From: Marinisporobacter balticus | Lineage (GTDB): Bacteria; Bacillota; Clostridia; Peptostreptococcales; Thermotaleaceae | DNA: 24,000 nucleotides | Assembly (NCBI RefSeq): GCF_004345705.1 | Contig: NZ_SLWV01000011.1 | Span: forward strand, 72,235-96,234 | Direction of reading: 5' to 3' | Shown: positions 1,071-22,272 of the stretch, one piece after another | Position numbering within the stretch: position 1 is the first letter of the stretch | Layout of the letters: each line of letters starts with the position of its first letter | Program-made: the position numbers and the translations under genes | Notes under the pieces: model-generated | Databases searched by the model: none | Told to the model about the DNA's origin: nothing | What the model saw: only the letters and a program-made list of their open reading frames with translations

Positions 1071-1276
1071 TATACAAATATTAGGTAGAAAATAAAAATT
1101 TTGGTGATTGTAATATTTTTGTAAAGATTTTTATGGGATTTTGTTGTATACTATAAATTGGTAAAAGATTGGTATATGACAAAAATATAAGATTAAAAAG
1201 AGATTTTGTAAGGCGAAAATATGGCTATGGATGCAAAAATTGTATAGAATAGAATGATACAAAGGGGGGGAGAACG

Positions 1277-5325: not shown

Positions 5326-5338
5326 TAAATAATATTTA

Positions 5339-5387
5339 AAAGGGATGTACATATTATATACGTATAATAGGTACATCCCTTTATTTT
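5339..5387 (+). terminator. Rho-independent terminator of the ABC operon
   Basis: AAAGGGATGTAC (5339-5350) pairs with GTACATCCCTTT (5371-5382), with further inner pairing, and is followed by ATTTT. Confidence 0.85.
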
Positions 5388-5551
5388 AGTAATGATATAA
5401 AATTAGGGCTAGATAATAAGTAGAAATTCTTTTTATCTATATTTAATCGTTTACATACTTGCTATTGTAATTAAAATTAAAGGTTTCGAAAATTATTGGA
5501 GAATATGTACAATATTAGGAAGATTATTTTTAAATTATTCATAAATGGCAT

Positions 5552-5579
5552 TTGACAATAATAAAATTTGGAGTATAAT
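5552..5579 (+). promoter_or_regulatory. sigma-A-type promoter for the mrp/nifX-like/minD-fdx operon
   Basis: TTGACA (5552-5557), a 16-nt spacer, then TATAAT (5574-5579). It lies about 45 nt upstream of the ATG at 5624. Confidence 0.65.
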
Positions 5580-5623
5580 ATAAATAGCAAATGCCAATTA
5601 TAGATATAATGGAGGGAATACAT

Positions 5624-6412
5624 ATGATACAAAAAGAAAAACCACTAGAAGGAACAAATATTAAAAAAATCATTGCTGTAATGAGTGGAAAAGGGGGCGT
5701 AGGGAAGTCTTCAGTTACTTCTTTAATGGCAGTATCACTAAGAAATAAAGGATATAAGGTAGGAATCATGGATGCAGATATAACAGGACCTAGTATTCCA
5801 AAAGTATTTGGTATCAACAATCAGAGAGCTGTGTCTATTGGAGAAGCCATTCAACCAGCAGAGACGGTTACAGGAATTAAGGCAATGTCGCTAAATTTAC
5901 TAGTAAAGCAAGAAGATGATCCAGTTGTTTGGAGAGGACCTGTCATTGCAGGAACTGTAAAACAATTCTATACAAATGTAGCATGGGGAGATTTAGATTT
6001 TTTATTGATTGATCTACCACCAGGAACAGGAGATGTACCTCTTACAATTATGCAGTCATTACCAGTAGACGGTATTGTCGTGGTATCATCTCCACAGGAT
6101 TTAGTAAAGTTGATTGTAAAAAAATCTGTAAACATGGCAAAAATGATGGACATACCGATCTATGGAATTGTTGAAAACATGAGTTATTTTGAATGTCCAG
6201 ATTGTAATAAAAAGCACTATATCTTTGGAAAAAGCAAAATTGAAGAAATAGCGAAAGAAATGGATATAGCGGTATTAGAAAAATTACCGATTGATCCTGA
6301 GTTTGTAGCACTTTGTGATGAAGGCAAAGTGGAAGTTTTCGGTAAAATGCGCTTTGGTTTTTGCGAAAACTTTGCAAATAAGTTAGAAGATAAAATAGGA
6401 GGGATTGAATAA
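5624..6412 (+). CDS. mrp: Mrp/NBP35 (ApbC-like) iron-sulfur cluster carrier P-loop ATPase
   Basis: ATG 5624 is preceded by GGAGGG (5611-5616); the ORF track starts at 5591. Deviant Walker A is AVMSGKGGVGKSS. WRGP, DLPPGTGD and the family CxxC motif (ENMSYFECPDCNKKHYIFG) are present. Confidence 0.85.
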   Translation: MIQKEKPLEGTNIKKIIAVMSGKGGVGKSSVTSLMAVSLRNKGYKVGIMDADITGPSIPKVFGINNQRAVSIGEAIQPAETVTGIKAMSLNLLVKQEDDPVVWRGPVIAGTVKQFYTNVAWGDLDFLLIDLPPGTGDVPLTIMQSLPVDGIVVVSSPQDLVKLIVKKSVNMAKMMDIPIYGIVENMSYFECPDCNKKHYIFGKSKIEEIAKEMDIAVLEKLPIDPEFVALCDEGKVEVFGKMRFGFCENFANKLEDKIGGIE

Positions 6413-6780
6413 TGAAAATATGTGTTTCAAGTTTGAACAAAGAAAAAAATGCAAAAATGGATCAACATTTTGGTAGATGTCCATATTTTTCAATCTTTGA
6501 TACGGAAACAAATGCATTTGAATTTCTTGAAAATGCAGGAGTTACGGCGAATCAAGGAGCAGGAATTGCAGCTGGACAACAAGTGATTGATGAAAAAGTA
6601 GGAGTGGTTATTACAGGAAGTTTAGGACCGAATGCAATGCGTGTATTACATGGTGGAAATATAGAAACATATACATGCCAAGGTGGAAGTATTGAAGAAG
6701 TGATAAATTTATTTCAAGAAGGAAAACTAGAAAGATTGGAAAGTGCTGGACCTGCACATTCTGGAATGGGGCACAAATAA
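6412..6780 (+). CDS. NifX/NifB-C-terminal-like (dinitrogenase FeMo-cofactor-binding fold) small protein
   Basis: TAATG overlaps the mrp stop. SD AGGAGGG (6397-6403). Family pattern: KIxV.S......HFGRCPYFSIFD.....F.EN........GAGI.A.Q.V.....VVITG..GPNA...L....I. Confidence 0.75.
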   Translation: MKICVSSLNKEKNAKMDQHFGRCPYFSIFDTETNAFEFLENAGVTANQGAGIAAGQQVIDEKVGVVITGSLGPNAMRVLHGGNIETYTCQGGSIEEVINLFQEGKLERLESAGPAHSGMGHK

Positions 6781-6796
6781 AGAAAGGACTGATCCT

Positions 6797-7636
6797 ATGA
6801 AGATTGCAGTCTTAAGTGGCAAGGGTGGGACAGGAAAAACAACTGTTTCTACAAATCTTGCAAAAGCTATGGGATGGCAATATATAGACTGTGATGTAGA
6901 AGAACCTAACGGATTTATATTCCTAAACCCTAAGATAATAGAAACAAGAGAAGTAACTATACCTGTTCCGATAATTGATGAAGAGAAGTGTATAAACTGT
7001 AATAAATGTGCCCAAATTTGTCAATTTAATGCATTGGCAGGAACAAATACAGGGATTATTTTCTTTGAAAAATTATGTCATGGTTGTGGTGCATGTACCC
7101 TTGTATGTCCAGTTGATGCCATTAAAGAAGAGGGAAGAGTTATTGGAAAGATTGATATAGGAAAAAGCGAGAATATTTCTTGTATACGAGGATTGTTAGA
7201 TGTAGGAGAACCGATGGCACCCCCCATTATCAAAGAATTAAAGAAGTTGATAGATGAAAAACCAACGGTTATTGATTGTTCACCAGGAAGTTCTTGTTCT
7301 GTTGTAGCAGCTATTGAAGGAACAGATTATGCTGTTTTGGTAACAGAGCCTACGGAATTTGGTTTGCATGATTTGAAAATTGCTGTAGAACTTGTTAAAA
7401 CAATGAAGATACCATTTGGGATCATTATTAATCGTGCAGATGAAGAAAATGATTTGATTGTCAGATATTGTAAAGAAGAAGAAATAAATCTTTTAGGAAG
7501 AATTCCTTTTGATAGAAAAGTAGCTGTTTTATATTCAAATGGAAAACTTTTAGTAGAAGATAAAGCATATAGAAAAGAATTTGAAGAATTAGGACGGAAA
7601 ATTTTGGGGGTGAAGGCATGCAACTCGTTGTTATAA
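6797..7636 (+). CDS. MinD/ParA-superfamily P-loop ATPase with inserted 2x[4Fe-4S] ferredoxin domain (COG1149 type), paralog 1
   Basis: ATG 6797 gives MKIAVLSGKGGTGKTT (deviant Walker A); the ORF-track start at 6743 overlaps the previous gene. Two ferredoxin motifs are present: CINCNKCAQIC and CHGCGACTLVCP. Confidence 0.8.
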   Translation: MKIAVLSGKGGTGKTTVSTNLAKAMGWQYIDCDVEEPNGFIFLNPKIIETREVTIPVPIIDEEKCINCNKCAQICQFNALAGTNTGIIFFEKLCHGCGACTLVCPVDAIKEEGRVIGKIDIGKSENISCIRGLLDVGEPMAPPIIKELKKLIDEKPTVIDCSPGSSCSVVAAIEGTDYAVLVTEPTEFGLHDLKIAVELVKTMKIPFGIIINRADEENDLIVRYCKEEEINLLGRIPFDRKVAVLYSNGKLLVEDKAYRKEFEELGRKILGVKACNSLL

Positions 7637-8460
7637 GTGGAAAAGGTGGAACAGGAAAGACAACTGTTGCAGCTGCATTTGCTTACCTTAATGAAAAAAG
7701 TATAAAAGTAGATTGTGATGTAGATGCTTCAAATCTTCATATTCTTCTTGGTGGAGAAGATATTGAAGAAGAAAATTTTATTGGGGCAAAAATGGCGCAT
7801 ATAGATCTTGATAAATGTATAAAATGTGGTGCTTGTGAAAAAGTTTGTAGATTTGGTGCGATACATGATTATGTTATAGAGCCATTAAAATGCGAAGGAT
7901 GTGCAGCATGTACGGTGGTATGCTCTCAAGAAGCGATTATATTAGAGGATGAAATAACAGGAAAAACCATTACAACCCGAACGAAGCAAGGGATTTTATC
8001 AAGGGCAGAAATGGTGATAGGTGCAGAAGGGTCTGGAAAACTTGTCACCCAAGTAAGAAAAAATGCGATGAAACATAGAAAAAATGATGAGATGCTTATA
8101 TTAGATGGAACCCCTGGCATAGGATGTGCCGTGATGGCTTCTATTACAGGTTGTGATGCTGCACTGATTGTTGTAGAACCAACCCAATCAGGATTAAATG
8201 ATTTTGAAAGAGTGCTTTCCCTAACGAAATTTTTCGGAGTGAAGACATTTGTATGCATTAATAAATACGATATCAATGAAGAGATGACTTTAAAAATAGA
8301 AAGCTTTTGTAAGGAAGAAGATATTGATTTATTAGGGAAAATTCCATTTGATCCAATGGTCAAAGAAGCTGTCAATCACTTAAAGCCTATTGTATGCTAT
8401 GAGGAAAGTAAAGCTTCAAAAGAAATCATAAAAATATGGAATCAAATAAACAAAATATAA
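7618..8460 (+). CDS. MinD/ParA-superfamily P-loop ATPase with inserted 2x[4Fe-4S] ferredoxin domain (COG1149 type), paralog 2
   Basis: MQLVVISGKGGTGKTT. Ferredoxin motifs CIKCGACEKVC and CEGCAACTVVC. It overlaps paralog 1 by 19 nt. SD GGGGGTGAAGG (7604-7614). Confidence 0.8.
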   Translation: MQLVVISGKGGTGKTTVAAAFAYLNEKSIKVDCDVDASNLHILLGGEDIEEENFIGAKMAHIDLDKCIKCGACEKVCRFGAIHDYVIEPLKCEGCAACTVVCSQEAIILEDEITGKTITTRTKQGILSRAEMVIGAEGSGKLVTQVRKNAMKHRKNDEMLILDGTPGIGCAVMASITGCDAALIVVEPTQSGLNDFERVLSLTKFFGVKTFVCINKYDINEEMTLKIESFCKEEDIDLLGKIPFDPMVKEAVNHLKPIVCYEESKASKEIIKIWNQINKI

Positions 8461-8475
8461 GGAGGCGTTTTAAAA

Positions 8476-8817
8476 ATGAAAATAGCGATAGCGAAGAATG
8501 GAAATACTGTATCAGGACATTTTGGTCATTGTGAAGGGTTTGAAACATTTGAAGTGGAAAATGGAAAAATTGTAGAAAGAGTATTTATTCCAAGTCCAGA
8601 ACATCAGCCAGGAATTTTACCACCATTTCTTGCTGATAAAGGTGTGAATGTCATTATTGCTGGTGGAATGGGTGGTGCTGCAGTAGAACTTTTTAAAGAA
8701 AGGGGTATTGCTGTAGTTATTGGTGCACAAGGAGATCTAGATGATGTGATTAAACAATACTTAAGTGGTGAATTGAAATCTACAGTAAGTGCATGTGAAG
8801 AACATCATCATCATTAA
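8476..8817 (+). CDS. NifX/NifB-C-terminal-like small protein with C-terminal Cys/His-rich tail
   Basis: SD AAGGAGG (8459-8465). MKIAIA......HFGHCEGFETFEV...VNVIIAGGMGGAA matches the NifX-like pattern. The protein ends in SACEEHHHH. Confidence 0.75.
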   Translation: MKIAIAKNGNTVSGHFGHCEGFETFEVENGKIVERVFIPSPEHQPGILPPFLADKGVNVIIAGGMGGAAVELFKERGIAVVIGAQGDLDDVIKQYLSGELKSTVSACEEHHHH

Positions 8818-8823
8818 GAATTT

Positions 8824-8851
8824 GGCAGAATAATTTTATTCTGCCTTTTTC
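8824..8851 (+). terminator. Rho-independent terminator
   Basis: GGCAGAAT (8824-8831) pairs with ATTCTGCC (8838-8845) and is followed by TTTTT. Confidence 0.85.
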
Positions 8852-8959
8852 ATTGAGTAATAAATAAAAAATTTATCAGAATATGAATAACTAGTGTATC
8901 AAATAATTTCTAAGAAATTTGAGCAAAGAAAATTTCAAAAGGAATTCTTTGAAATTTCG

Positions 8960-8990
8960 TTGACGAAATGAAAATATAAGATAGTATAAT
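8960..8990 (+). promoter_or_regulatory. candidate sigma-A promoter for the fur-family/DUF134 genes
   Basis: TTGACG (8960-8965) and TATAAT (8985-8990). The 19-nt spacer is longer than optimal. Confidence 0.45.
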
Positions 8991-9029
8991 GCGAATTTTT
9001 TTATATAATATAAGAATTGGGTGGTACGA

Positions 9030-9467
9030 ATGGAAAGTAAAATAGAAATCATCGAAAAGATTTTAAAAGAAAAGAATATTAAGTGTACGAACCAAAGAAA
9101 AGCAATTATAGAAGTTTTTGTAAATCAAGATGCACATTTTAAGCCAGAAGAAGTGTATGATTTAGTAAAAGGTAAAAAAATTGGGCTAGCAACAGTATAT
9201 CGAACCATAGAAATATTAAAAATACATGGTATAATAGAAGAAACTACGATCGAAAAAGATAGATATTATGAGTTAAAGTTATTTAGTGAAAAGCGGTTGC
9301 ACATTCATTTTAAATGTAGCAGGTGTAATCAAATCTACGATTATGACAAAACAGAAATGATTTTGGATTTGATCCAATTAAGAAATTTTGCTGAACAAGA
9401 GTATAATGTAAGGGTAGAAGATATAAAAATGATTATGAATGGTGTATGTCATAAGTGTAGGGGGTGA
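9030..9467 (+). CDS. Fur-family metalloregulator (Fur/PerR/Zur type; specificity not assignable)
   Basis: ATG 9030 is preceded by GGGTGG; the ORF track starts at GTG 9021. N-terminal winged helix (TNQRKAIIEVF...GLATVYRTIEIL), an HIH motif ahead of CSRC, and a second C-terminal CHKC pair give the structural Cys4 pattern of Fur proteins. Confidence 0.8.
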   Translation: MESKIEIIEKILKEKNIKCTNQRKAIIEVFVNQDAHFKPEEVYDLVKGKKIGLATVYRTIEILKIHGIIEETTIEKDRYYELKLFSEKRLHIHFKCSRCNQIYDYDKTEMILDLIQLRNFAEQEYNVRVEDIKMIMNGVCHKCRG

Positions 9468-9471
9468 AATT

Positions 9472-9945
9472 TTGGCTAGACCTATGAAACCACGAAAAAT
9501 TGCTTTTATGCCAGAAAATAGATATTTTATCCCTGTAGGTAAACCCAAATGCCATCTTGAAGAAATCCAATTAAAGCTTGAAGAAGTAGAAGCAATGCGA
9601 TTAAAAGACATTGAAAAACTTTCTCAAGAGGAATGTGCAGAAAAAATGCATGTATCTAGACAGACTTTCCAATTGATTATTGACAAAGCCAGAAAAAAGG
9701 TTGCTGAAGCACTAACAGAAGGCAAAGCTATCAATATCCAAGGCGGAAATTATACTTTGAATATTTGTAAATATCAATGTAAAAACTGTGATCATGAATT
9801 TAATGAAGCATACGAAAAAGAAGTGCATGTTTGTCCTGTATGCAATTCTGAGGAAGTTGTATGTATGGATAAAGGAAGATGCTGTATGAAAGCTTGCAGA
9901 AGACCTTGGTGTGAAAACAAAGAGATGAACCAACAAAAGAAATAA
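9472..9945 (+). CDS. DUF134/UPF0251 family predicted DNA-binding protein with Cys-rich C-terminal extension
   Basis: TTG 9472 lies 5 nt after GGGGGTGA (9459-9466) and 4 nt after the fur-family stop; ATG 9484 is an alternative start. (M)ARPMKPRKIAFMPENRYFIP...LEEVEAMRLKDIEKLSQEECAEKMHVSRQTFQLIIDKARKKVAEAL..GKAI.I.GG is the DUF134 consensus. The last roughly 60 aa contain 10 Cys, including CKNC and CPVC. Confidence 0.8.
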   Translation: MARPMKPRKIAFMPENRYFIPVGKPKCHLEEIQLKLEEVEAMRLKDIEKLSQEECAEKMHVSRQTFQLIIDKARKKVAEALTEGKAINIQGGNYTLNICKYQCKNCDHEFNEAYEKEVHVCPVCNSEEVVCMDKGRCCMKACRRPWCENKEMNQQKK

Positions 9946-10043
9946 TAAAAATATTGAGCTTAAGAAGTGTACAACAGGTGTGTGTAGATTTCTTATACAA
10001 CTTCTGCAAGTATAATATATTTTATTTAATGGAGGAAAGAAAG

Positions 10044-10424
10044 ATGAATACAATCGATGAAGCAGTTATGAAGTACTTTGATGATTGTAAAAAAGGATGC
10101 AGTAATCTTATTGCTAGTAAAGATTTATACGAAGCCATACAAAAAAAAGAAAAGTTATTTATGTTAGACATTAGAAGACCTGAAGATTTTGCGAAAAATC
10201 AGATTAATGGATCTATCAATATTTATTGGAGTGAAGTGGGAGAATTTATTGATGTTCTACCAATGGATGAAAAAATTATTGTAATCTGCTATACAGGACA
10301 AACATCAGGACAAGTGGTATCTCTACTTAAGGTTTTAGGATATGATGCATATTCTCTTAGTGGTGGTATGATCAATGGATGGATGAAGGGTTCTTTACCA
10401 GTACAGGCAGGATGCTCAACCTGA
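10044..10424 (+). CDS. single-domain rhodanese (GlpE-like sulfurtransferase)
   Basis: ATG 10044 follows GGAGGAAAG (10031-10039); the ORF-track start at 9954 is an unlikely extension. The active-site loop VICYTGQTSGQ resembles GlpE CYHGNSS. LDIRRPEDF and GSINI are also family features. Confidence 0.8.
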   Translation: MNTIDEAVMKYFDDCKKGCSNLIASKDLYEAIQKKEKLFMLDIRRPEDFAKNQINGSINIYWSEVGEFIDVLPMDEKIIVICYTGQTSGQVVSLLKVLGYDAYSLSGGMINGWMKGSLPVQAGCST

Positions 10425-10461
10425 GGTTAAGATGAATCTCTTGGAGAGAGAGAATGAAAAT

Positions 10462-10494
10462 AAAAGTCGGGAAATTTTCTCGACTTTTATTTAT
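10462..10494 (+). terminator. Rho-independent terminator
   Basis: AAAAGTCGGGAAA pairs with TTTCTCGACTTTT (one G-U wobble) and is followed by ATTTATT. Confidence 0.8.
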
Positions 10495-12039: not shown

Positions 12040-12954
12040 CTATAATTTAGAAAATTCTACTGCTAATTTAGTACCAACTATTGCATTGTTATATACCAAT
12101 TCGATATTTGATGCTAAACTTTTTCCAGCAGTAATAGATTTGATTCTAGAAAGAAGGAAAGGGGTTGCTTCTTTTCCTTTGATGCCTTTTTCTTTTGCTT
12201 CTGTTACTGCATTTTCTATTGCATCATTGATGGTATCAAAATCCATTTCATATTCTGTTGGAATTGGGTTGCCTACAACTATCCCTCCATTTAAATTCAA
12301 ATCCCATTTTGCTTTTAATGCTTTTGCAAGCTCTACTTCAGAATCAACACGATAGTCTACTTTAAATCCACTTTTTCTTGTAAAGAATGCTGGGAAATCT
12401 TCTGTTTTAAAACCTACTACAGGAACGCCATGCGTTTCTAAGTATTCTAAAGTAAGTCCAATATCTAGGATTGATTTTGCGCCTGCACAAATCACAGCTA
12501 CATTGGTATTGCTAAGTTCTGTTAGATCTGCAGAGATATCAAAAGTTTCTTGGGCATCTCTGTGAACCCCACCGATTCCTCCTGTAACAAAAACTTTAAT
12601 TCCAGCTAAATTCGCAATAATCATAGTGGATGCTACAGTGGTTGCACCATTTAATTCTTTTGCAATAATAAAGGGTAAATCCCTTCTACTTGCTTTGAAG
12701 ATATCTGTTCCTTTTCCCATATATTCTAGTTCATCTTCTGTAAGACCTACTTTCAATCTTCCGCCTATGATAGCTATTGTCGCAGGTATGGCATCATTTT
12801 CTCTTATGATGGATTCAACTTTTCTAGCTGTTTCAACGTTTTGAGGATAGGGCATACCGTGGGATATGATTGTAGACTCTAATGCAACAACAGCGCGTCC
12901 CGCGTCTAAAGCTTTTTTTACCTCTGGATGGATATCTAAATATTTTCTATACAT
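12040..12954 (-). CDS. psuG: pseudouridine-5'-phosphate glycosidase
   Basis: Full-length match to the PsuG/YeiN pattern: VVALESTIISHGMPYPQN, ATIAIIGGRLKVGL, TTVASTMIIA..AGI.VF.TGGIGGVHR, DISADL.EL, AVICAGAKSILD. Confidence 0.9.
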   Translation of the reverse strand: MYRKYLDIHPEVKKALDAGRAVVALESTIISHGMPYPQNVETARKVESIIRENDAIPATIAIIGGRLKVGLTEDELEYMGKGTDIFKASRRDLPFIIAKELNGATTVASTMIIANLAGIKVFVTGGIGGVHRDAQETFDISADLTELSNTNVAVICAGAKSILDIGLTLEYLETHGVPVVGFKTEDFPAFFTRKSGFKVDYRVDSEVELAKALKAKWDLNLNGGIVVGNPIPTEYEMDFDTINDAIENAVTEAKEKGIKGKEATPFLLSRIKSITAGKSLASNIELVYNNAIVGTKLAVEFSKL

Positions 12955-14042
12955 AAATTCATCTCCTTTGAAATTTTTTGGATATATTTTAATGACATCG
13001 TAGGGTTAATTGTATTTTCATGCATCAGTGCTAAAATGGATGAAGCCATAGCAAACTTTGCACTATTTTCTAAAGTATAGTTATTTAAATGGCTATAAAC
13101 GATTCCTGCCATAAAAGCATCTCCAGCTCCTGTAGCATTGACTGCTTTTACTAGTTTAGCAGGTAGAAAGTTAGAAGTATTTTCATCTGCATAATATACA
13201 CCTTCTTTTCCGAGACTGATAAATATTTTTTTTACACCTTTTCCTAAAAAATAATGTGAAGCTTTTTGTAAATCATCTCTTGTATTAATTTTTATATCAG
13301 TTAATATTTCAGCTTCTAATTTATTGGGCTTAATTGTATGAAAGGAACCGATAAAATCTTTTACTTTTTTTGCTTTCGTAGTAGATACAGGATCAAGAAA
13401 AAAATGAACTCCTTTTAAATTGGTTACTAAATAATGTAAAACTTCTTGAGGAATATTTGTATCTACAACCACTAATTGAGCATTTTTTAGGATATGGTTT
13501 TTTTTTCTGATAAAATTAATATTGATTTTATCTAAAATATCCATATCTGAAATGGCGACTTTCATATCTCTATTTTCATCTAAAACAGAAAGATAGGTAG
13601 AGGATGAGGCATCTTTTAGTATGAAAGTGTGCTGCATATCGATTCCAGAAATTTTACATTCCTCTAAAATTTTATTGCCATATAAGTCATCTCCTATAGC
13701 AGAAATAAGTCTCGTGTTGATTCCAAGCTTTACTAGATTTTCTGCGATGTTTCTTCCAACACCACCTAACGAAATTTTTACCTTACCTGGATTTGAATCA
13801 TTTAAAATCAATGGATTACTTGTAAAACCTTGAATATCAATATTGGTTCCACCGATTGCAACAATATAATCTTCTTCTCGTACAATGTACCCTTTCCCCA
13901 TAATATAGCCCTTTTTCATCAAATTTGTAATATGAACAGCGACAGAGGAACGGGTAATCCCTAATGTATCTGCTAACTCTTGCTGCGATATATAAGGATT
14001 CTTTCTAATCAATGATAAAATTTCTTTTTCGCGTAAGGTCAT
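12936..14042 (-). CDS. psuK: PfkB-family kinase with N-terminal winged-HTH; probable pseudouridine kinase
   Basis: ATG 14042 follows GGTGA; the ORF track starts at TTG 14054. The N-terminal roughly 55 aa form an HTH (ISQQELADTLGITRSSVAVHITNLMKKGYI). The ribokinase-like core has GGVGRNIA and C-terminal NATGAGDAF motifs. The gene overlaps psuG by 19 nt. Confidence 0.75.
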   Translation of the reverse strand: MTLREKEILSLIRKNPYISQQELADTLGITRSSVAVHITNLMKKGYIMGKGYIVREEDYIVAIGGTNIDIQGFTSNPLILNDSNPGKVKISLGGVGRNIAENLVKLGINTRLISAIGDDLYGNKILEECKISGIDMQHTFILKDASSSTYLSVLDENRDMKVAISDMDILDKININFIRKKNHILKNAQLVVVDTNIPQEVLHYLVTNLKGVHFFLDPVSTTKAKKVKDFIGSFHTIKPNKLEAEILTDIKINTRDDLQKASHYFLGKGVKKIFISLGKEGVYYADENTSNFLPAKLVKAVNATGAGDAFMAGIVYSHLNNYTLENSAKFAMASSILALMHENTINPTMSLKYIQKISKEMNLCIENI

Positions 14043-14279
14043 CACTATCACCAACTTATGCTTATTTTATAAACTAATGCTTAACAACAGTATATCTCAA
14101 AATAGCAAATTTATCAAAAGAAATTTTTTATAATTTCCGTATATAGATTCTGAACAATTGTATCAGCGAAACACTATATTCAAAATATTTTATATAAATA
14201 ATAAAAAACAGAAATTTAATCATATAAGTTATATATATGAAATTTGTTTCATAGTCACGAAAATATTTAACAAGAGCCA

Positions 14280-14308: not shown

Positions 14309-14384
14309 GAATAAAAGTAAAGGAATATTTTAACAAAACAGCAAATTTATATTATATAACCATAAAAAAGTGAGGGAAAGACTT

Positions 14385-14948
14385 GTGGCAGCTGATATAG
14401 GAAAAAAGATTAAGGAACTAAGGACAAATAAAAATTTAACATTAAAGGATTTGAGTGAAAAAACTAATCTATCTATAGGTTATCTATCTCAGTTAGAAAG
14501 AGGACTTACCACCATCGCCATTGATTCTTTAGAGAACATTGCCAAAGTGTTGGATACAGATATCGCTTGTTTTTTTAGAGAACATAAAAATAGTAAAAAA
14601 GCTGTACTTCGGAATCATGAAAAAGAAGTATTCGAAATCATTAATTCTCAGTTTATCTATTACCATTTAACAAATGATGTAGAGAGTAAAAATCTTCTTC
14701 CAAGATTGATTGAAATACTCCCAAGTATGATGGAGGAAAAAATCATAACTTATCAGCATGAAGGAGAAGAATTTATCTATGTTTTAGAAGGAATCCTTAC
14801 AATGATCATCGATAATGAACAGTATGCGCTCTACCCAGGAGATAGTGCCCATATTGATTCAAATAGGGTGCATAATTGGGCGAATTATACAAACAAGAAG
14901 GTCAAGTTGTTAACCGTGCATACACCTAATTTCTTAAAGAAGGCGTAG
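14385..14948 (+). CDS. XRE-family HTH + cupin domain transcriptional regulator
   Basis: GTG 14385 follows GAGGGAAAG (14372-14380); the ORF track starts at GTG 14370. N-terminal HTH is IGKKIKELRTNKNLTLKDLSEKTNLSIGYLSQLERG. C-terminal cupin is HEGEEFIYVLEG......YPGDSAHIDSN..H.W.N. Confidence 0.8.
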   Translation: MAADIGKKIKELRTNKNLTLKDLSEKTNLSIGYLSQLERGLTTIAIDSLENIAKVLDTDIACFFREHKNSKKAVLRNHEKEVFEIINSQFIYYHLTNDVESKNLLPRLIEILPSMMEEKIITYQHEGEEFIYVLEGILTMIIDNEQYALYPGDSAHIDSNRVHNWANYTNKKVKLLTVHTPNFLKKA

Positions 14949-15059: not shown

Positions 15060-15959
15060 TTGAAAAAGGGGAGAATCATAAATATTCAGAAGTATTGTGT
15101 ACATGATGGGCCGGGGATTCGAACAACTGTATTTTTTAAGGGATGTCCACTGAATTGCTGGTGGTGTCATAACCCTGAAAGTCAAAAATTTGAAAAAGAG
15201 ATGATGTATAACCATGAAAAATGTACCATGTGTGGAGAATGCGAAAAAAGATGTGAAGGGAAAGGGATCAAATTAACGGAGAATATTTTTTATGATCCAA
15301 CGAAATGTGTATTTTGTGAAAATTGTATTGATTTTTGCATCAACAACGCGAGAGAAATGATAGGAAAAGAATATACAATAAGTGAACTGATGAAGGAAAT
15401 AAAAAAAGATCAAATGTTTTATCAAGAATCAGGTGGAGGTGTTACATTATCAGGTGGAGAAGTGATGACCCAAATCACATTTGTAGAAGAACTTGTAAGA
15501 CGTTGTAAAGAAAATGGAATGCATGTTGCAATAGATACTTGTGGATATGTTCCTTTTTATAGTTTTGAGAGAATTTTAGATAATACAGACATTTTCTTGT
15601 ATGATATTAAGTTGATTGATTCTAAAAGACATGAAAAATATACAGGGAAGCCGAATGAATTGATACTCGATAATATGAAAAAATTATCAGAAAAAGGTGC
15701 GAATATTCATCTGAGAATTCCTCTAATAGAAGGAATCAACACAGATGGTGAAAATATAGAAGGCATCATAAAGTTTGCTTCAGATTTAAAGATTTCAAAG
15801 GTAAATTTGTTACCTTATCATGAAATAGGTAGTGATAAGTATAAAAGATTAAATATGGATTACAAAAAAGGGGGAATGGTGCGACCAACAGACCAAAGAT
15901 TAGAGGAAATTAAAGCCATGTTTAAAGAATCTAAATTCGAGGTGAAAATTGGGGGGTAA
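15060..15959 (+). CDS. glycyl-radical enzyme activating protein (radical SAM, PflA family with ferredoxin insert)
   Basis: TTG 15060 follows AAGAAGGTGA. CVHDGPGIRTTVFFKGCPLNCWWCHNPE contains the CX3CX2C motif. Two extra Cys clusters are present: CTMCGECEKRC and CVFCENCIDFC. Confidence 0.9.
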   Translation: MKKGRIINIQKYCVHDGPGIRTTVFFKGCPLNCWWCHNPESQKFEKEMMYNHEKCTMCGECEKRCEGKGIKLTENIFYDPTKCVFCENCIDFCINNAREMIGKEYTISELMKEIKKDQMFYQESGGGVTLSGGEVMTQITFVEELVRRCKENGMHVAIDTCGYVPFYSFERILDNTDIFLYDIKLIDSKRHEKYTGKPNELILDNMKKLSEKGANIHLRIPLIEGINTDGENIEGIIKFASDLKISKVNLLPYHEIGSDKYKRLNMDYKKGGMVRPTDQRLEEIKAMFKESKFEVKIGG

Positions 15960-15963
15960 AATT

Positions 15964-18333
15964 ATGGGAAGAGGAATGAATGAAAGAATTCAAAAATTAA
16001 GAAAGCAAAGTATAACGACAGAACCTCACATTTCTATAGAAAGGGCAGTACTCGTAAATGAAGCCTATCAAAAATATGCAGGTACCGTAGAGAAACCTAT
16101 TCTTAGAGCTTTGACATTTAAACATATTATGGAAAACAAAAAACTTTGTATGAATGAAGATGAACTAATTGTAGGAGAAAAGGGGGAAGGACCACAATCG
16201 ACCCCTACTTTTCCAGAACTTTGCTGTCATACATTAAAAGATTTTGAAATTATGAATGATAGAGAATATATTTCTTTTAAAACCAGTGAAGAAGTACGAA
16301 AGGTTCAAGTAGAAACCATTATTCCTTATTGGGAAAATCGTTCTATAAGAAAGAACATTTTTGATCATATGAAACCAGAATGGGTAGATTGCTATGAAAA
16401 TGGGATCTATACTGAATTTATGGAACAAAGAAGCCCGGGTCATACAGTAGCAGATGGGAAAATGTATAAAAAAGGTTTCCTTGGATTTAAAAAAAACATT
16501 GAAGATTCAATTTCAAAACTTGACTATTTCGATGACCCACAAGTATATGAAAAGAAAACACAGCTTCAAGCGATGGCCATTTGCTGTGATGGGATTATTG
16601 CTTTTGGGAAAAGATATGAGCAGTATGCTCGAGCGTTAGCAGAAAATGAAACAGATGAAAGAAGAAAAGCGGATCTTCTAAAAATTGTCCAAAACTGTGA
16701 AGTTGTTCCTGCACACGCACCAAAAACATTCCATCAGGCAATACAAATGTATTGGTTTGTACATGTTGGTGTTACAAATGAACTAAACAATTGGGATGCT
16801 TATAGCCCTGGTAGATTAGATCAGCATCTATATCCTTTCTATAAAAAAGAAATAGAGGAAGGTACATTAACAAGAGATGAGGCAAAAGAATTATTAGAAT
16901 GCTTATGGGTAAAATTCAATAACCAACCAGCACCTCCTAAGGTAGGTATTACATTAAAGGAAAGTGCTACTTATACAGACTTTGCAAACATTAATACAGG
17001 TGGAGTTACATCAGATGGAGCAGATGGTGTAAACGATGTAAGTTATTTAATTTTAGAGGTAATGGATGAAATGAAGCAATTACAGCCTAGTTCAAATGTA
17101 CAAATTAGTCGAAAAACACCTCAACACTTCTTAAAAAAAGCTTGCGAAGTTTCAAGAAAGGGTTGGGGGCAGCCTGCATTTTACAATATAGATGCAATGA
17201 TTCAAGAAATGCTTCGTGCAGGAAAAGACATAACAGATGCTAGAGAAGGGGGTGCTAGTGGTTGTGTAGAAACTGGGGCTTATGGAAAAGAAGCATATAT
17301 TTTAACAGGATATATGAATATTCCTAAAATATTTGAAATAACACTTAATAATGGATTAGATAAGGTTTCAGGAAAACAACTAGGACTAAAAACAGGAGAT
17401 CCAAGAGGTTTTGAGACTTATGAAGAATTGTTTGAGGCATTCAATAAACAATTAAATTATTTTGTAGATATTAAAATAAAAGGAAGTAATATAATCGAAA
17501 AAATCTATGCCACCCATATGCCATCTCCATTCTTATCTGTTATCACGAGTGATTGTATATCTAAGGGAATGGATTATAATGCAGGAGGCGCTAGATATAA
17601 TACAAACTATATTCAAGGTGTGGGGATAGGAACCATTACGGACTGCTTAGCTTCTATCAAATATAATGTATTTGATAAGAAAAGATTTAGTATGGATGAA
17701 TTACTAAAGGCATTAGAGGATAATTTTGAGGGGCATGAAAATATTCATAATATTATATGCAACAAAACGGCTAAATATGGAAATGATGATGATTATGCAG
17801 ATGATTTAATGATCGATGCTTTTAATCTATTCTATAATGCTGTAAATGGTAGACCAAATATGAAGGGTGGATGCTATAGAATTGATATGCTTCCAACGAC
17901 TTGCCATGTTTACTTTGGAGAGGTTATGGGAGCGAGTGCAGATGGAAGACTTGCGCACAAACCAGTTTCTGAAGGAATTTCTCCAGCGAAGGGGGCAGAT
18001 AGAAATGGCCCTACTGCTGTAGTGAGATCAGCAGCAAAGATGGATCATCTAAGAACAGGTGGAACACTTCTTAATCAAAAATTTACACCTTCTGTACTTG
18101 CAGGAGATGAAGGAATTGAAAATTTAGCGTCACTCATTCGTTCTTATTTCAATATGGATGGACATCATATCCAATTTAATGTAATTGATAGACAGACTTT
18201 AATCGATGCGCAAAATAAACCTGAAGAATATAAAGATTTGATCGTGCGTGTTGCTGGATATAGTGATCATTTTCATAATTTAAGTAAAGCGCTTCAAGAT
18301 GAAATTATTGAAAGAACAGAGCAAGAATTTTAA
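15964..18333 (+). CDS. hypD: glycyl radical enzyme, probable trans-4-hydroxy-L-proline dehydratase
   Basis: ATG 15964 lies 7 nt after GGGGGG (15951-15956); the ORF track starts at TTG 15949. C-terminal glycyl-radical motif LIVRVAGYS. Cys loop GGASGCVETG as in 1,2-eliminating GREs. The gene is flanked by an activase and a P5C reductase, which is the signature context of HypD. Confidence 0.8.
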   Translation: MGRGMNERIQKLRKQSITTEPHISIERAVLVNEAYQKYAGTVEKPILRALTFKHIMENKKLCMNEDELIVGEKGEGPQSTPTFPELCCHTLKDFEIMNDREYISFKTSEEVRKVQVETIIPYWENRSIRKNIFDHMKPEWVDCYENGIYTEFMEQRSPGHTVADGKMYKKGFLGFKKNIEDSISKLDYFDDPQVYEKKTQLQAMAICCDGIIAFGKRYEQYARALAENETDERRKADLLKIVQNCEVVPAHAPKTFHQAIQMYWFVHVGVTNELNNWDAYSPGRLDQHLYPFYKKEIEEGTLTRDEAKELLECLWVKFNNQPAPPKVGITLKESATYTDFANINTGGVTSDGADGVNDVSYLILEVMDEMKQLQPSSNVQISRKTPQHFLKKACEVSRKGWGQPAFYNIDAMIQEMLRAGKDITDAREGGASGCVETGAYGKEAYILTGYMNIPKIFEITLNNGLDKVSGKQLGLKTGDPRGFETYEELFEAFNKQLNYFVDIKIKGSNIIEKIYATHMPSPFLSVITSDCISKGMDYNAGGARYNTNYIQGVGIGTITDCLASIKYNVFDKKRFSMDELLKALEDNFEGHENIHNIICNKTAKYGNDDDYADDLMIDAFNLFYNAVNGRPNMKGGCYRIDMLPTTCHVYFGEVMGASADGRLAHKPVSEGISPAKGADRNGPTAVVRSAAKMDHLRTGGTLLNQKFTPSVLAGDEGIENLASLIRSYFNMDGHHIQFNVIDRQTLIDAQNKPEEYKDLIVRVAGYSDHFHNLSKALQDEIIERTEQEF

Positions 18334-18436
18334 GGGATAGATGCGTTCGATTTAAAAAAATTATTTGGAAGATAATCGATAGAAAATAGGTAAAAATATT
18401 TTTAATAATAGATAATGGCTAAAAGGAGGAATTTAT

Positions 18437-19243
18437 TTGAAAAAAATAATCGGGTTTATAGGTGCAGGAAATATGGGACAGGCAATGGTGGGGGGGATAG
18501 TAAAATCCAAATTACTTCAGCCACAACAAGTCATGATGGCGGATCGTAGTGAAGAAAGATTGAAAGTTGTTTCTAAGGAATATGGGATAAAAGTGAACAC
18601 AGATAATAAGGAAGTAGCGAAAAATGCAGATGTTTTAATATTATCAGTAAAACCGAATATATACGCGCCTGTTATAGAAGAAATAAAAGATATTGTAAAG
18701 GAAGATGTAATCATTATTACGATTGCAGCTGGAAAAGATATAAGTGGTACTGAAAAAGGCTTTGGAAGGAAATTAAAAGTTGTTAGAGCTATGCCAAATA
18801 CACCAGCTCTTGTAGGGGAAGGAATGACATCTATTTCTCCTAATGAGAAGTTATCAAATGAAGAAATAGATGAAGTTGTCAAAATTCTAAAAAGCTTTGG
18901 GAAAGTTGAAATCGTAAATGAAAAATTAATGAATGCTGTTACATCAGTAAGTGGATCATCACCAGCATACGTATTTATGTTTATCGAAGCGATGGCAGAT
19001 GGTGCAGTTTTAGATGGAATTCCAAGAGATCAAGCTTATAGAATGGCAGCGCAGGCAGTACTTGGATCTGCTAAAATGGTATTGGATACGGGCATGCATC
19101 CAGGGGCACTCAAAGACATGGTATGCTCTCCTAGTGGAACAACGATTGAAGCAGTAACAACACTTGAAAAAACAGGATTTAGAGCAGCTGTTATATCTGC
19201 AATGAAAAGCTGCACGAATAAATCTATTGAGATGTCAAAATAA
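18437..19243 (+). CDS. proC: pyrroline-5-carboxylate reductase
   Basis: TTG 18437 lies 7 nt after AAGGAGG (18423-18429). N-terminal Rossmann motif IGFIGAGNMGQAM. RAMPNTPALVGEG, SGSSPAY and CSPSGTTIE are also present. Confidence 0.9.
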   Translation: MKKIIGFIGAGNMGQAMVGGIVKSKLLQPQQVMMADRSEERLKVVSKEYGIKVNTDNKEVAKNADVLILSVKPNIYAPVIEEIKDIVKEDVIIITIAAGKDISGTEKGFGRKLKVVRAMPNTPALVGEGMTSISPNEKLSNEEIDEVVKILKSFGKVEIVNEKLMNAVTSVSGSSPAYVFMFIEAMADGAVLDGIPRDQAYRMAAQAVLGSAKMVLDTGMHPGALKDMVCSPSGTTIEAVTTLEKTGFRAAVISAMKSCTNKSIEMSK

Positions 19244-19579: not shown

Positions 19580-20413
19580 TTAGAAAGCAGGAACAATTGC
19601 ACCATTGTATTTCTCTTCAATAAATTTCTTTACTTCTTCTGATTGTAATACAGTTACTAATTTTTTGATTTTTTCACTATCTTGATCTTCTGGTCGAATG
19701 GTAATAATATTTGCATAAGGTGATTCGCTTCCTTCAATAATTAACGCATCCTTTTTAGGATTCAAATTTCCTTCTAATGCATAGTTTGTGTTAATAATAC
19801 TTACATCAACATCGTCTAATGTTCTAGGAAGCTGTGCTGCATCAATCGGTTTGAATACTAGATTTTTAGGATTTTCTACAATATCTTTTTCTGTAGCTTC
19901 TAACCCTGCATCTTTTTTTAACCTAATAATGCCATTAGCATCTAAAAGAATTAACGATCTTCCTTCATTTGTTGGATCATTTGGAATTGTAATAGTAGCG
20001 CCATCTTTTAAATCATCAACAGACTTTATTTTTTTAGAATATAAACCAAGGGGCTCAACATGTACTTTTGCTGCACTTACAAGATCAAGTCCACGTTCCT
20101 TATTAAAAGCTTCTAAGTAAGGCAAGTGCTGGAAGAAATTTGCATCAATTTCTTTTTCTGATAAAGCAATGTTTGGAGTTACATAATCCGTAAATGATTT
20201 AATTTCTAAGTTAATGCCTTCTTCTTCAAGTTTTGGCTTGATAAATTCTAGTATCTCAGTATGGGGTACGGGTGTTGCACCAATAATAAGCGTTACAGAT
20301 TCGTTCCCTTTTGCATCGCTAGATGTAGCAACCTCTTCTTTTTTTGTACACCCAGTAAAAACCAAAGATAATACCAACAAGCTTACAAGTAAAGTAACAA
20401 TATTTTTTTTCAT
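19580..20413 (-). CDS. metQ: methionine ABC transporter substrate-binding lipoprotein (MetQ/NlpA family)
   Basis: SD GGAGGAAT. Lipoprotein signal peptide with lipobox FTGC. NlpA-family body (GATPVPH.EIL, NFFQH.PYL, IPNDPTN.GR.L). It sits downstream of metN and metI under an S-box riboswitch. Confidence 0.9.
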   Translation of the reverse strand: MKKNIVTLLVSLLVLSLVFTGCTKKEEVATSSDAKGNESVTLIIGATPVPHTEILEFIKPKLEEEGINLEIKSFTDYVTPNIALSEKEIDANFFQHLPYLEAFNKERGLDLVSAAKVHVEPLGLYSKKIKSVDDLKDGATITIPNDPTNEGRSLILLDANGIIRLKKDAGLEATEKDIVENPKNLVFKPIDAAQLPRTLDDVDVSIINTNYALEGNLNPKKDALIIEGSESPYANIITIRPEDQDSEKIKKLVTVLQSEEVKKFIEEKYNGAIVPAF

Positions 20414-20425
20414 TTTTTATTCCTC

Positions 20426-21076
20426 CTATTTTTTATTAATAATTTGTGCAATTTTGTTGCCTGTGCTTTGAATAATCTGAACTAATATAATCAGTAGAAT
20501 GATTGTAGCAATCATTACATCTGTCTGGAAACGATGATAACCATATCGTATAGCCAAGTCTCCAAGTCCACCTGCACCAACGGTGCCTGCCATAGCAGAA
20601 TAGCCTAAAACATTTATAATCGTAATAGTAACGCCCAGAATTAAAGATGACATTGATTCGGGAATCAAAACCTTCATGATAATTTGGAAGGGTGTGGCAC
20701 CCATTGAAATAGAAGCTTCTACTACACCCCAATCTACTTCCTTTATACTCGTTTCTACAATCCTAGCAAAGAAGGGGGTTGTTGCAATGATTAATGGAAC
20801 AATTGCGGCTGTTGTACCAATAGTTGTTCCAACAACAAGTCGCGTAAATGGAAAAATGAAAATCATTAGTATAATAAAGGGTAGTGATCTTGTTATATTA
20901 ATAATATATGAGAGCACACCATTTAGCCGAGTGTTTGGCAATATATGATTCGGGTCTGTTACAACTAAAATAATTCCTAGTGGCAACCCAAAGAGGATTG
21001 TAAAAAATACAGATGCAAATACCATATATAAGGTTTCTAATAAAGAGGGCGTAAGGAGTTCGATCCAGTGATTCAT
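20426..21076 (-). CDS. metI: methionine ABC transporter permease
   Basis: About five TM segments. EAA-like loop EASISMGATPFQIIMKVLIPES. ATGA overlap with the metN stop. Confidence 0.9.
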   Translation of the reverse strand: MNHWIELLTPSLLETLYMVFASVFFTILFGLPLGIILVVTDPNHILPNTRLNGVLSYIINITRSLPFIILMIFIFPFTRLVVGTTIGTTAAIVPLIIATTPFFARIVETSIKEVDWGVVEASISMGATPFQIIMKVLIPESMSSLILGVTITIINVLGYSAMAGTVGAGGLGDLAIRYGYHRFQTDVMIATIILLIILVQIIQSTGNKIAQIINKK

Positions 21077-22160: not shown

Positions 22161-22272
22161 TCTCTCATCTGTCGATACAAAAGTATCGCAGGAATTGGCA
22201 CCGTTGCTTATATATAAGCGGGTTGCCGGGTATCATAGGGCCTAGTCCCTCCACCACTCTGGATAAGAGATA
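22161..22272 (-). promoter_or_regulatory. SAM-I (S-box) riboswitch aptamer
   Basis: The minus strand reads CTCTTATCCAGAGTGGTGGAGGGACTAGGCCCTATGATACCCGGCAACC...ACGGTGCCAATTCCTGC...ACAGATGAGAG. This gives P1 CUCUUAUC/GAUGAGAG plus the conserved S-box core elements. Confidence 0.9.

Follow-up and report, generated by a model that had tools for sequence, protein, structure and literature searches.

The closest described relative of the gene cluster analysed here, a block of eight open reading frames (ORFs) in a 24-kb stretch of Marinisporobacter balticus DNA, is the gene cluster for the ORP (orange protein) complex of Desulfovibrio. In Desulfovibrio vulgaris Hildenborough this cluster consists of orp3-5 and orp7-9 (DVU2103-DVU2109). 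The members of the complex are Orp3, Orp4, Orp5, Orp8 and Orp9 (PMC6345978). Orp3 and Orp4 are paralogous MinD-like ATPases with two [4Fe-4S] motifs apiece, Orp8 is the orange protein and belongs, with a single domain, to the dinitrogenase FeMo-cofactor family, and both Orp4 and Orp8 co-purify with Orp3 in Desulfovibrio (PMC6345978). Orp9, also called MrpORP, binds two kinds of cluster, a bridging [4Fe-4S] cluster through CxxC and a [3Fe-4S] cluster through the Di-Nase domain at its C-terminus, and Fe-S clusters pass from it to the apo-Orp3-Orp4-Orp8 complex; the C-terminal domain is marked by the motif CXHFGHCE, a proline-rich PPPHxPGxxP and a CDH near the end (PMC6345978).

OrpR, an Fe-S redox sensor that binds GGGCGYRTTTTGCGCCC and acts with sigma54, is the regulator in Desulfovibrio and is reportedly restricted to deltaproteobacteria. 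The Nitro_FeMo-Co family (PF02579), to which the orange protein belongs, occurs in about 65% of anaerobes versus 7.6% of aerobes, far beyond diazotrophs. IssA, the thioferrate storage protein of Pyrococcus furiosus, is also placed in the Nitro_FeMo-Co family and linked to iron and sulfide (cited in PMC6345978).

The whole 24-kb stretch is called the window hereafter, and coordinates are positions in it; the block lies at 5591-10424, with all eight ORFs on the + strand. We consider it likely that the block represents the ORP complex gene cluster in the form that it takes in Bacillota, with a proposed role in ATP- and electron-dependent handling of Fe-S or metal-sulfide species. An initial annotation of the block had described its anatomy correctly and had also guessed the general biochemical area correctly, since a role in Fe-S or metallocluster handling agrees with the experiments on the homologous Desulfovibrio proteins. 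Its designation of the block as an uncharacterised system has to be given up: the ORP complex cluster is named and has been studied since 2011, and MrpORP has been characterised biochemically and has its own NCBIfam model, NF041136. No later functional assignment of the complex was found in the literature searched. Having a name and a literature, the system is not categorically new, and the window alone adds a handle rather than an answer. The placement replaces a vague 'nif-like' annotation by a defined and partly characterised system; new here are the division of MrpORP into two genes, the Fur/DUF134 module, a conserved operator for which there are two candidate regulators, and fusion evidence for a heterodimer of the ATPases.

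Gene content and a split MrpORP

In a check with profile hidden Markov models (HMMs), all family calls of the initial annotation exceeded the Pfam gathering score (ParA/NUBPL 316 bits, Nitro_FeMo-Co 84.9 and 80.7, FUR 76.9, DUF134 83.8, Rhodanese 47.3, and CbiA plus Fer4 in each of ATPase a and ATPase b), and every motif that it quoted was found in the translations. The product of the first gene, Mrp, matched PF10609 with 316.5 bits against a cut-off of 27.1 and contains the Walker A motif SGKGGVGKSS (GKGGVGKS) and a CPDC motif. By these features it is classed as an Mrp/NBP35-type Fe-S carrier ATPase, the homolog of the P-loop domain of MrpORP. Its best NCBIfam model is NF041136 itself, with 337.7 bits over model positions 3-242 of 365. 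This score is under the 450-bit cut-off because the C-terminal domain is missing, and the gene does not encode a fused MrpORP. Identity with ApbC was ruled out by a score of 222 bits against the equivalog cut-off of 348.

The remainder of NF041136 (model positions 265-365) was matched with 109.9 bits by the product of the fifth gene, NifX-like b. Its motifs GHFGHCE, PSPEHQPGILPP and the C-terminal CEEHHHH are counterparts of the CXHFGHCE, PPPHxPGxxP and CDH of the Di-Nase domain; HFGHCEGF is present as well, and its matches in the Protein Data Bank (PDB) are PH0822 and TM1816 (E ~1e-17). The signature motifs of both MrpORP domains, namely Walker A, CxxC, HFGHCE, PxPxHxPG and C-[DE]-H, are thus all found in the cluster. 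While the window Mrp shares the deviant Walker A and the cluster-bridging CxxC with MrpORP, it lacks the N-terminal four-Cys motif of that protein, and the two domains here are on separate genes about 2 kb apart.

The second gene encodes NifX-like a, a single-domain protein with the motif HFGRCPYF that matched PF02579 with 84.9 bits. Its PDB matches are 1EO1 (MTH1175, 1.3e-18) and 2WFB (the D. gigas ORP, 7e-11), by which it is classed as a single-domain Nitro_FeMo-Co protein related to the orange protein (Orp8). It shares PF02579, a family of small alpha/beta fold, with NifX, NafY and the C-terminal domain of NifB; however, the nifX equivalog TIGR02663 gave only 16.4 bits versus a cut-off of 112, and there are no nif genes in the window. 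No nitrogenase, hydrogenase or CODH structural gene was found in the 24-kb window or in a 20.8-kb locus from the 88.8-kb source contig, and the independence from nitrogenase proposed in the initial annotation is supported. The carriers of the window also differ from IssA, having no cationic C-terminal tail.

From the two halves of NF041136, the Di-Nase motifs and the match to 2WFB, the five-gene core is therefore assigned, at the level of sequence, to the ORP type with MrpORP split into two genes. Mrp corresponds to the P-loop half of Orp9 and the two ATPases to Orp3/Orp4, and NifX-like a resembles Orp8. The core resembles the D. vulgaris cluster in its adjacent paralogous MinD-like ATPases, each with two [4Fe-4S] motifs, in its single-domain Nitro_FeMo-Co proteins and Mrp-type Fe-S carrier, and in its restriction to anaerobes. 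Homologous loci retrieved with the window ATPase also include true MrpORP equivalogs, which ties them to the canonical ORP cluster: three long Mrp proteins in the sampled loci exceeded the NF041136 cut-off (500-518 bits versus 450), and the ATPase pair adjoins them. In contrast, the genes form one co-directional array here but two divergent operons in D. vulgaris, Fur-like and DUF134 genes are attached here, and a sigma-A promoter with TTGGCA-N2-TGCCAA sites is found here in place of the sigma54, IHF and OrpR control with its GGGCGYRTTTTGCGCCC site. The Maridesulfovibrio locus L034 was rejected as a direct Desulfovibrio comparator, as no NifX-like gene could be detected beside its ATPase pair and FmdB-type ribbon; its place was taken by those Desulfobacterota loci that have a true MrpORP.

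Distribution of ORP-type loci

The distribution of the cluster was determined in 80 loci, one genome per species, which were retrieved by a scan with the window ATPase and annotated with HMMs seeded from the window. Gene content was counted within 6 kb of the ATPase, and counts of clustered neighbours and of paralog order refer to 84 loci. The phyla sampled were Bacillota, Desulfobacterota, Chloroflexota, Planctomycetota, Ignavibacteria, Omnitrophota, Acidobacteriota, Verrucomicrobiota and several archaeal phyla. The ATPase pair was present in 71 of the 80 loci, in bacteria and archaea, so that the earlier expectation of similar neighbourhoods recurring in anaerobes held; the pair is kept in lineages as far apart as Clostridia, Thorarchaeota and Bathyarchaeia. 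One or more NifX-like genes were present in 73/80 and at least two in 61/80, and Mrp was found in 39/80, with 11 of the proteins having the length of fused MrpORP. The ferredoxin-ATPase pair with its NifX-like carriers is among the most widespread anaerobe-specific gene sets without known function.

The other counted families were the NifU_N scaffold (24/80), DUF134 (23/80), metallo-beta-lactamase (18/80), pyridine-nucleotide disulfide oxidoreductase (10/80) and Fur (8/80). When unannotated neighbours were clustered, FmdB-type zinc ribbons with Cys-rich tails appeared in 27/84 loci, sigma54 enhancer-binding proteins in 20/84, ARMT1-like/DUF89 proteins in 17/84 and DUF364/DUF4213 ('heavy-metal chelation') in 9/84, and CGGC and DUF1847 proteins were recurrent. 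This census of accessory genes points to Fe-S handling, given NifU_N, Mrp, DUF364, CGGC and Feo.

Small Gly/Arg-rich DUF5320 proteins with the N-terminus MPRGDGTGP were seen in 46/84 loci (for example L012 8216-8587, L082 168-392 and L017 8891-9145), and similar Gly/Arg-rich tails end several DUF134 proteins of other phyla. The DUF5320 signature G[DG][GR]TGP was absent from a six-frame motif scan of the window. In the literature searched, nothing was found on the function of DUF134, UPF0251 or DUF5320.

Among the Clostridia, Crassaminicella thermophila has the layout Mrp-NifX-ATPase-ATPase-NifX-Fur-DUF134-RecX, C. ragsdalei and a Peptostreptococcaceae genome share the Mrp-NifX-ATPase-ATPase-NifX-Fur-DUF134 heptad, and C. 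botulinum has NifX-ATPase-ATPase-GCAxxG-NifX-Fur-DUF134-NifU_N. Geosporobacter ferrireducens (L088 5875-10465) has a reduced Mrp-NifX-DUF134 operon followed by feoA-feoB and a DtxR-type repressor.

The ferredoxin-ATPase pair

ATPase a and ATPase b are 34% identical and both contain the Walker A motif SGKGGTGKTT, two CxxCxxCxxxC motifs and DCDV, with PGSSCSV or PGIGCAV near Walker B. These features characterise them as MinD-like P-loop ATPases with an inserted domain predicted to hold two [4Fe-4S] clusters, of the Orp3/Orp4 family. The family is large, with at least 8000 close matches in a word-index search and 761 clusters at 50% identity (E <= 1e-30). All of the 36 diverse sequences compared have the eight ferredoxin Cys, Cys167 (PPGTSC) and both Asp of DCDV; PGxxC was found in 96% of 162 family members, and the Cys of DCDV in 86% of a-type and 70% of b-type proteins. 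Cys167 lies seven residues after the Walker-B Asp, in the switch-II region, a spacing that we take to be that of the NifH cluster ligand Cys132. A counterpart of the second of the two NifH/BchL Cys ligands was not established.

The deviant Walker A and the fold are common to the SIMIBI dimerising ATPases MinD, HypB, NifH, BchL and ApbC, whereas a ferredoxin domain of about 60 residues for two [4Fe-4S] clusters, inserted after switch I, distinguishes the window proteins from all of them. In an AlphaFold2 model of ATPase a (pLDDT 94.9), which has a long C-terminal helix at residues 256-277, the closest solved folds by Foldseek were archaeal MinD, ATPase-type HypB, BchL, ApbC and NifH (E 1e-10 to 1e-7). 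The best structural match reached a TMq of only ~0.58 because no solved structure has the inserted ferredoxin domain, and no full-length sequence match was found in the PDB. All SIMIBI equivalog scores in NCBIfam were far under their cut-offs: the MinD equivalog TIGR01968 gave 65.1 bits for ATPase b and 34.2 for ATPase a versus 212.9, and the nifH and BchL equivalogs gave no significant match for either protein. The similarity to the septum-site ATPase MinD is therefore at the fold level only.

The initial annotation had suggested that the two paralogs form a heterodimer, and this is probably so. The a-type gene precedes the b-type gene in 69/84 loci, where the type was assigned by single-sequence phmmer scores because the round-2 HMMs for a and b merged both paralogs. 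In addition, approximately 30 of the best 150 family representatives, including P0121-P0153, are two-module proteins of about 600 amino acids (aa) that keep the a-then-b order of the two genes. In one of these fusions, P0121 (622 aa), the N-terminal half is a-like (45% vs 29%) and the C-terminal half is b-like (42% vs 32%). The fixed order, these 'Rosetta stone' fusions and the co-purification of Orp3 and Orp4 together favour an obligate heterodimer of the two proteins.

Candidate regulatory genes and operator-like sites

The Fur-like protein matched PF01475 with 76.9 bits and has the CxxC pairs CSRC and CHKC of a predicted structural Cys4 zinc site. Its best NCBIfam models were Fur (87 bits) and PerR (61 bits), no Fur, PerR or Zur equivalog cut-off being reached. 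The regulatory site is complete, with His/Glu/His-x-His/Asp positions that align with family members; the PerR reference in this alignment served as a guide only. The protein probably senses a metal or, like PerR, an oxidant. The DUF134 protein matched PF02001 with 83.8 bits (cut-off 27), together with weak matches to Sigma70_r4_2 and Zn_ribbon_8. It has a sigma-70 region-4-like helix-turn-helix, a zinc-ribbon-like C-terminal CxxC...CxxC and a Cys-rich tail, and its N-terminal (M)xRPxKxRK motif is common to 30 homologs in the sampled loci. The tail was considered as a fusion with the FmdB-type zinc-ribbon proteins of other phyla, but BLASTP gave E = 0.34 and the Zn_ribbon_8 match was sub-threshold, so that this is a resemblance.

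Fur followed by DUF134 directly after the core is found in C. botulinum, C. ragsdalei, Peptoclostridium litorale, Crassaminicella and a Peptostreptococcaceae genome. The two genes are a recurring clostridial regulatory pair, in place of the sigma54/OrpR of Desulfovibrio. The metal-responsive regulation that the initial annotation suggested lacks support in two respects: the Fur-like gene, although regular in Clostridia, occurs in only about 10% of the sampled genomes, and there is no classical Fur box at either promoter. A 7-1-7 Fur/PerR/Zur box was searched for with up to 3 mismatches and was absent from 5326-5623, 8818-9029 and 9946-10043.

The rhodanese matched PF00581 with 47.3 bits and has the active-site loop CYTGQTS; the GlpE equivalog gave 42.6 bits versus a cut-off of 102. 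No rhodanese adjoins the ORP core in any of the 80 sampled loci (0/80) or in the closest named relatives (L002, L003, L005-L007), and for this reason it is a lineage-specific passenger or accessory gene and not a conserved part of the cluster. The gene can be dropped from models of the system.

Two 14-bp near-palindromes of the type TTGGCA-N2-TGCCAA surround the promoter of the first cluster gene and appear together as an inverted repeat. Site 1 is placed identically in at least 13 other Bacillota loci, and the dual operator occurs in at least 14 Bacillota loci, from several families. Both sites stand ahead of the first cluster gene in Crassaminicella thermophila, C. botulinum, Candidatus Formimonas, Peptoclostridium litorale, Anaerostipes, Velocimicrobium and Gracilibacter, and likewise in Geosporobacter, a Peptostreptococcaceae genome and further Bacillota metagenome-assembled genomes. 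In C. ragsdalei the operator occurs twice, before Mrp and before NifX, while Vallitalea has a single perfect palindrome and a Verrucomicrobiota genome has a near-perfect copy 23 bp upstream of DUF134. The operator positions are L002 6750/6789, L003 7540/7581, L005 6735/6770, L006 7499, L007 8768, L008 8070/8111, L009 9448/9489, L030 8641/8681, L087 1927 and 3954/3994, L088 5805/5838 and L089 3023/3070. When the palindrome was searched at <=1 mismatch in 1.29 Mb of loci, 16 matches were obtained and 9 of them were within ~100 bp upstream of the first cluster gene; chance would give about 3 overall and about 0.02 in the upstream stretches by a rough estimate that assumes uniform base composition. 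No description of the pair was found in the literature searched, and to our knowledge it is unlike the sites of Fur, PerR, Zur, Rex and OrpR.

The operator is present without a Fur gene in L005, L030 and L088, and all three loci encode DUF134. Because the operator operons without Fur all encode DUF134, we infer that DUF134 may be a better candidate binder of the operator than the Fur-like protein. The L088 operon of Geosporobacter, which has the dual operator but neither the ferredoxin-ATPases nor a Fur gene, likewise hints at a link to iron and at DUF134 as the operator partner. The block has a consensus sigma-70-type promoter and the window contains no enhancer-binding-protein gene, and the clostridial control module looks like a non-homologous replacement of sigma54/OrpR. 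It is possible, although we put this forward only tentatively, that DUF134/UPF0251 fills the gap of a transcription factor for ORP-type clusters beyond the deltaproteobacteria, as a Cys-rich repressor that would sense metal or Fe-S and act on the paired palindromes, with a dedicated Fur/PerR-like protein in Clostridia. If so, Mrp, the NifX-like carriers, the ATPase pair and, in some genomes, the DUF5320, FmdE and Feo neighbours would form a conserved regulon, and ORP function would become accessible to genetics for the first time, in tractable Clostridia.

The palindrome is present once more, as a weaker copy with 2 mismatches (TTGGTATATGACAA) at window position 1169-1182, upstream of the operon for a MacB/FtsX-type ABC transporter that lies before the cluster. 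This copy was rejected as a real operator, since a partner site and a clear promoter are missing and 0.64 such matches would arise by chance alone; it is probably a chance match.

Proposed mechanism and alternative explanations

We propose that ATPase a and ATPase b would form a nucleotide-dependent heterodimer of the MinD/NifH kind, each subunit contributing a 2x[4Fe-4S] ferredoxin insert and the invariant Cys of the switch-II region. This heterodimer may dock NifX-like a, the Orp8 counterpart, as a carrier of a labile inorganic metal-sulfide cluster. Mrp would assemble or carry a [4Fe-4S] cluster on its CxxC and load the ATPases, and NifX-like b, which on a separate chain represents the C-terminal domain that binds [3Fe-4S] in MrpORP, could serve as an adaptor or second carrier. 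ATP turnover and low-potential electrons would then build, reduce or hand over Fe-S or metal-sulfide species to clients under strictly reducing conditions. The position of the sigma-A promoter between the two palindromes is a layout typical of repression, and a response to iron or redox state is likely to come from the Fur/PerR-like and DUF134 proteins as regulators, replacing sigma54/OrpR; the rhodanese would be a local addition. This proposal builds on homology and synteny, on gene fusions and conserved residues, and on the operator and the Fe-S-oriented accessory genes, from which we infer the reaction, the clients and the operator-binding protein. For complex formation, the a-b fusions and the fixed gene order suggest it indirectly.

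Several points weigh against this assignment. The Desulfovibrio authors still call the function of ORP unclear and favour a link to cell division. The window has neither a fused MrpORP nor the N-terminal four Cys of MrpORP nor sigma54/OrpR control. The orange protein has a Mo-Cu cluster whereas its relatives have Fe-S clusters, and NifX-like a may bind either. The heterodimer and the role of Cys167 are read from conservation in the sequences. The operator is unlike the known Fur-family boxes and its link to either regulator is a presumed one, and no copy of it lies upstream of the Fur-like/DUF134 unit; ahead of the Fur-like and rhodanese genes, the best match to the 14-bp palindrome had 4 mismatches, so that a site there was rejected.

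The preference of the Desulfovibrio authors corresponds to an explanation in which the MinD-like ATPases place the septum or another structure and the metal clusters are redox sensors only, as first proposed for the Desulfovibrio ORP. Archaeal MinD is the closest solved fold of ATPase a, MinD models are the best NCBIfam matches outside ORP, and the literature describes morphological defects on OrpR inactivation, a polar location of MrpORP and amphipathic helices at the C-termini of Orp3/Orp4; a long helix also ends the model of ATPase a. Nevertheless, the MinD equivalog was matched with 65 bits against 212.9, nine Cys are invariant across phyla, the ATPase pair is also kept in diverse archaea, and the conserved neighbours NifU_N, Mrp, Nitro_FeMo-Co, DUF364 and CGGC are metal-cluster proteins and not division genes, and we regard a positioning function as very unlikely. 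Unlikely, too, is a function in Mo/W thiometallate handling, in which the carriers would bind Mo- or W-sulfide and feed or buffer the synthesis of molybdo- or tungsto-enzyme cofactors. This could account for the homology of NifX-like a to the orange protein, which binds [S2MoS2CuS2MoS2], for the suggestion from an Archaeoglobus study of a role in molybdopterin oxidoreductase cofactors, and for xanthine-dehydrogenase-type molybdoenzymes and FmdE adjoining some loci (L005). However, mod, moa/moe and tup genes and a Moco riboswitch are absent from the window, the homologous domain of MrpORP carries Fe-S and not Mo, and the commonest accessories are the Fe-S scaffolds and carriers NifU_N and Mrp, with Feo genes after the operon in L088.

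Alternatively, the Nitro_FeMo-Co proteins might store excess iron and sulfide, as IssA stores thioferrate, with the ATPases loading or mobilising the store under the control of a Fur-type iron sensor. The two carriers of the window have no IssA-like cationic tail, although they belong to the same family as IssA; in other phyla, cationic Gly/Arg-rich tails and DUF5320 proteins are recurrent at ORP loci, but the six-frame scan of the window gave no DUF5320 signature. Likewise, a Fur-family gene is in the cluster and Feo iron uptake adjoins the Mrp-NifX-DUF134 operon of Geosporobacter, yet neither promoter has a Fur box and a Fur-like gene is in only 8/80 sampled clusters, so that storage or buffering has a slim chance of being the function. 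Each of these three explanations fits the neighbourhood data less well than the assembly and delivery of Fe-S or metal-sulfide species. It is also unlikely that the block is not one system but an ORP core of five genes with unrelated downstream neighbours, the Fur-like, DUF134 and rhodanese genes. Such a division would follow the terminator-like hairpin and separate promoter-like site between NifX-like b and the Fur-like gene, and it agrees with the counts of rhodanese (0/80) and Fur-like genes (8/80). Against it, Fur then DUF134 directly follow the core in at least 6 Clostridia of different families, with gaps down to 17 bp, and DUF134 is found in 23/80 loci across phyla versus ~1% by chance, a figure that is a rough assumption with no measured background. 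Because of the recurrence of the Fur-DUF134 pair, this explanation holds for the rhodanese only. With the ORP assignment preferred, the new points give a testable entry into genetically tractable clostridia.

Gene layout and other features of the window

The features of the block are listed in Table 1. The eight genes are present on one strand as first described and are tightly packed; direct reading of the sequence also reproduced the TAATG overlap of mrp and NifX-like a at 6410-6414 and the 19-nt overlap of the two ATPase genes at 7618-7636. The G+C content of the window is approximately 32%, and the block is on the leading-skew strand. With the TTG start, the DUF134 gene encodes 157 aa that match the Marinisporobacter balticus protein from end to end with 100% identity. 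The window coincides with a section of contig 36 in the Logan assembly of SRR8552828, and its source is probably M. balticus or a close relative in the Thermotaleaceae (Peptostreptococcales).

Table 1. Positions of genes and signals in and around the ORP-type block
Feature	Position	Strand	Remarks
Terminator-like hairpin and T-run	5339-5387 (hairpin 5339-5382)	+	Inverted repeat, 20-nt arms, 95% complementary
Operator-like site 1, ATGGCATTTGACAA	5545-5558	none	TTGGCA-N2-TGCCAA variant; overlaps -35 hexamer
Sigma-A/sigma-70-type promoter, TTGACA-16-TATAAT	5552-5579	+	12/12 consensus matches
Operator-like site 2, ATAGCAAATGCCAA	5584-5597	none	Just past -10 hexamer, near expected transcription start
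Mrp	ORF from 5591, likely start ATG 5624, end 6412	+	GGAGGG precedes ATG
NifX-like a	6412-6780	+	PF02579 (Nitro_FeMo-Co)
ATPase a	6797-7636	+	Likely start ATG 6797, preferred over GTG 6743
ATPase b	7618-8460	+	Paralog of ATPase a
NifX-like b	8476-8817	+	Stand-alone homolog of MrpORP C-terminal 'Di-Nase' domain
Terminator-like hairpin GGCAGAATAA/TTATTCTGCC and T-run	8824-8851	+	Between NifX-like b and Fur-like gene
Perfect 10-bp inverted repeat AAATTTCAAA/TTTGAAATTT	8930-8939 / 8948-8957	+	Abuts promoter-like site of Fur-like/DUF134 unit
Promoter-like site, TTGACG-16-TAGTAT	8960-8987	+	Weaker than 5552-5579 promoter
Fur-like gene	9030-9467	+	Start ATG; PF01475
DUF134/UPF0251 gene	9472-9945	+	Start TTG; PF02001
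Rhodanese gene	10044-10424	+	Start ATG; PF00581
Intrinsic-terminator-like hairpin closing block	10458-10492	+	Sequence reading

The first terminator-like element closes the upstream ABC-transporter operon and is the left border of the cluster. Given the three terminator-like hairpins and the two promoters of Table 1, a division of the block into two transcription units is plausible. The promoter of the first unit is kept in loci L002, L003, L005 and L007, and the hairpin after NifX-like b is kept in Crassaminicella thermophila (L002). The inverted repeat before the second unit, whose 8-bp spacer contains GAATTC, and the adjoining promoter-like region (8930-8987) are not conserved in L002. No riboswitch or leader RNA was detected upstream of the cluster by Rfam at gathering scores; the sole match in the window was a SAM riboswitch (RF00162, 94.3 bits) at 22162-22269 on the - strand, upstream of a three-gene - strand operon at 19580-22065.

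HypD and its activase lie downstream of the block, as the initial annotation had said. They belong to a hydroxyproline-utilisation set at 15060-19243, which consists of trans-4-hydroxy-L-proline dehydratase (NF043068, 1536 bits), the radical-SAM activase (NF043069, 463 bits) and pyrroline-5-carboxylate reductase, and a Cupin/HTH regulator gene (14370-14948) is located upstream of this set. On the - strand at 12040-14054, an Indigoidine_A gene of the pseudouridine-5'-phosphate glycosidase type is paired with a PfkB kinase gene whose product bears an N-terminal winged-helix domain.

On the other side of the block, the ATPase gene of the ABC transporter (1264-1963) lacks an ATG, GTG or TTG at the beginning of its conserved N-terminus, KNAIEIKNV.... 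A rare start at the ATT codon at 1277, which follows a GGGGGGGAG run at a distance of five bases, would fit, and the public gene call (1433-1963) shortens the gene and drops the Walker A motif. Upstream of the transporter operon, a YbjQ_1 gene ('putative heavy-metal-binding', PF01906, 119 bits) is found at 715-1032.

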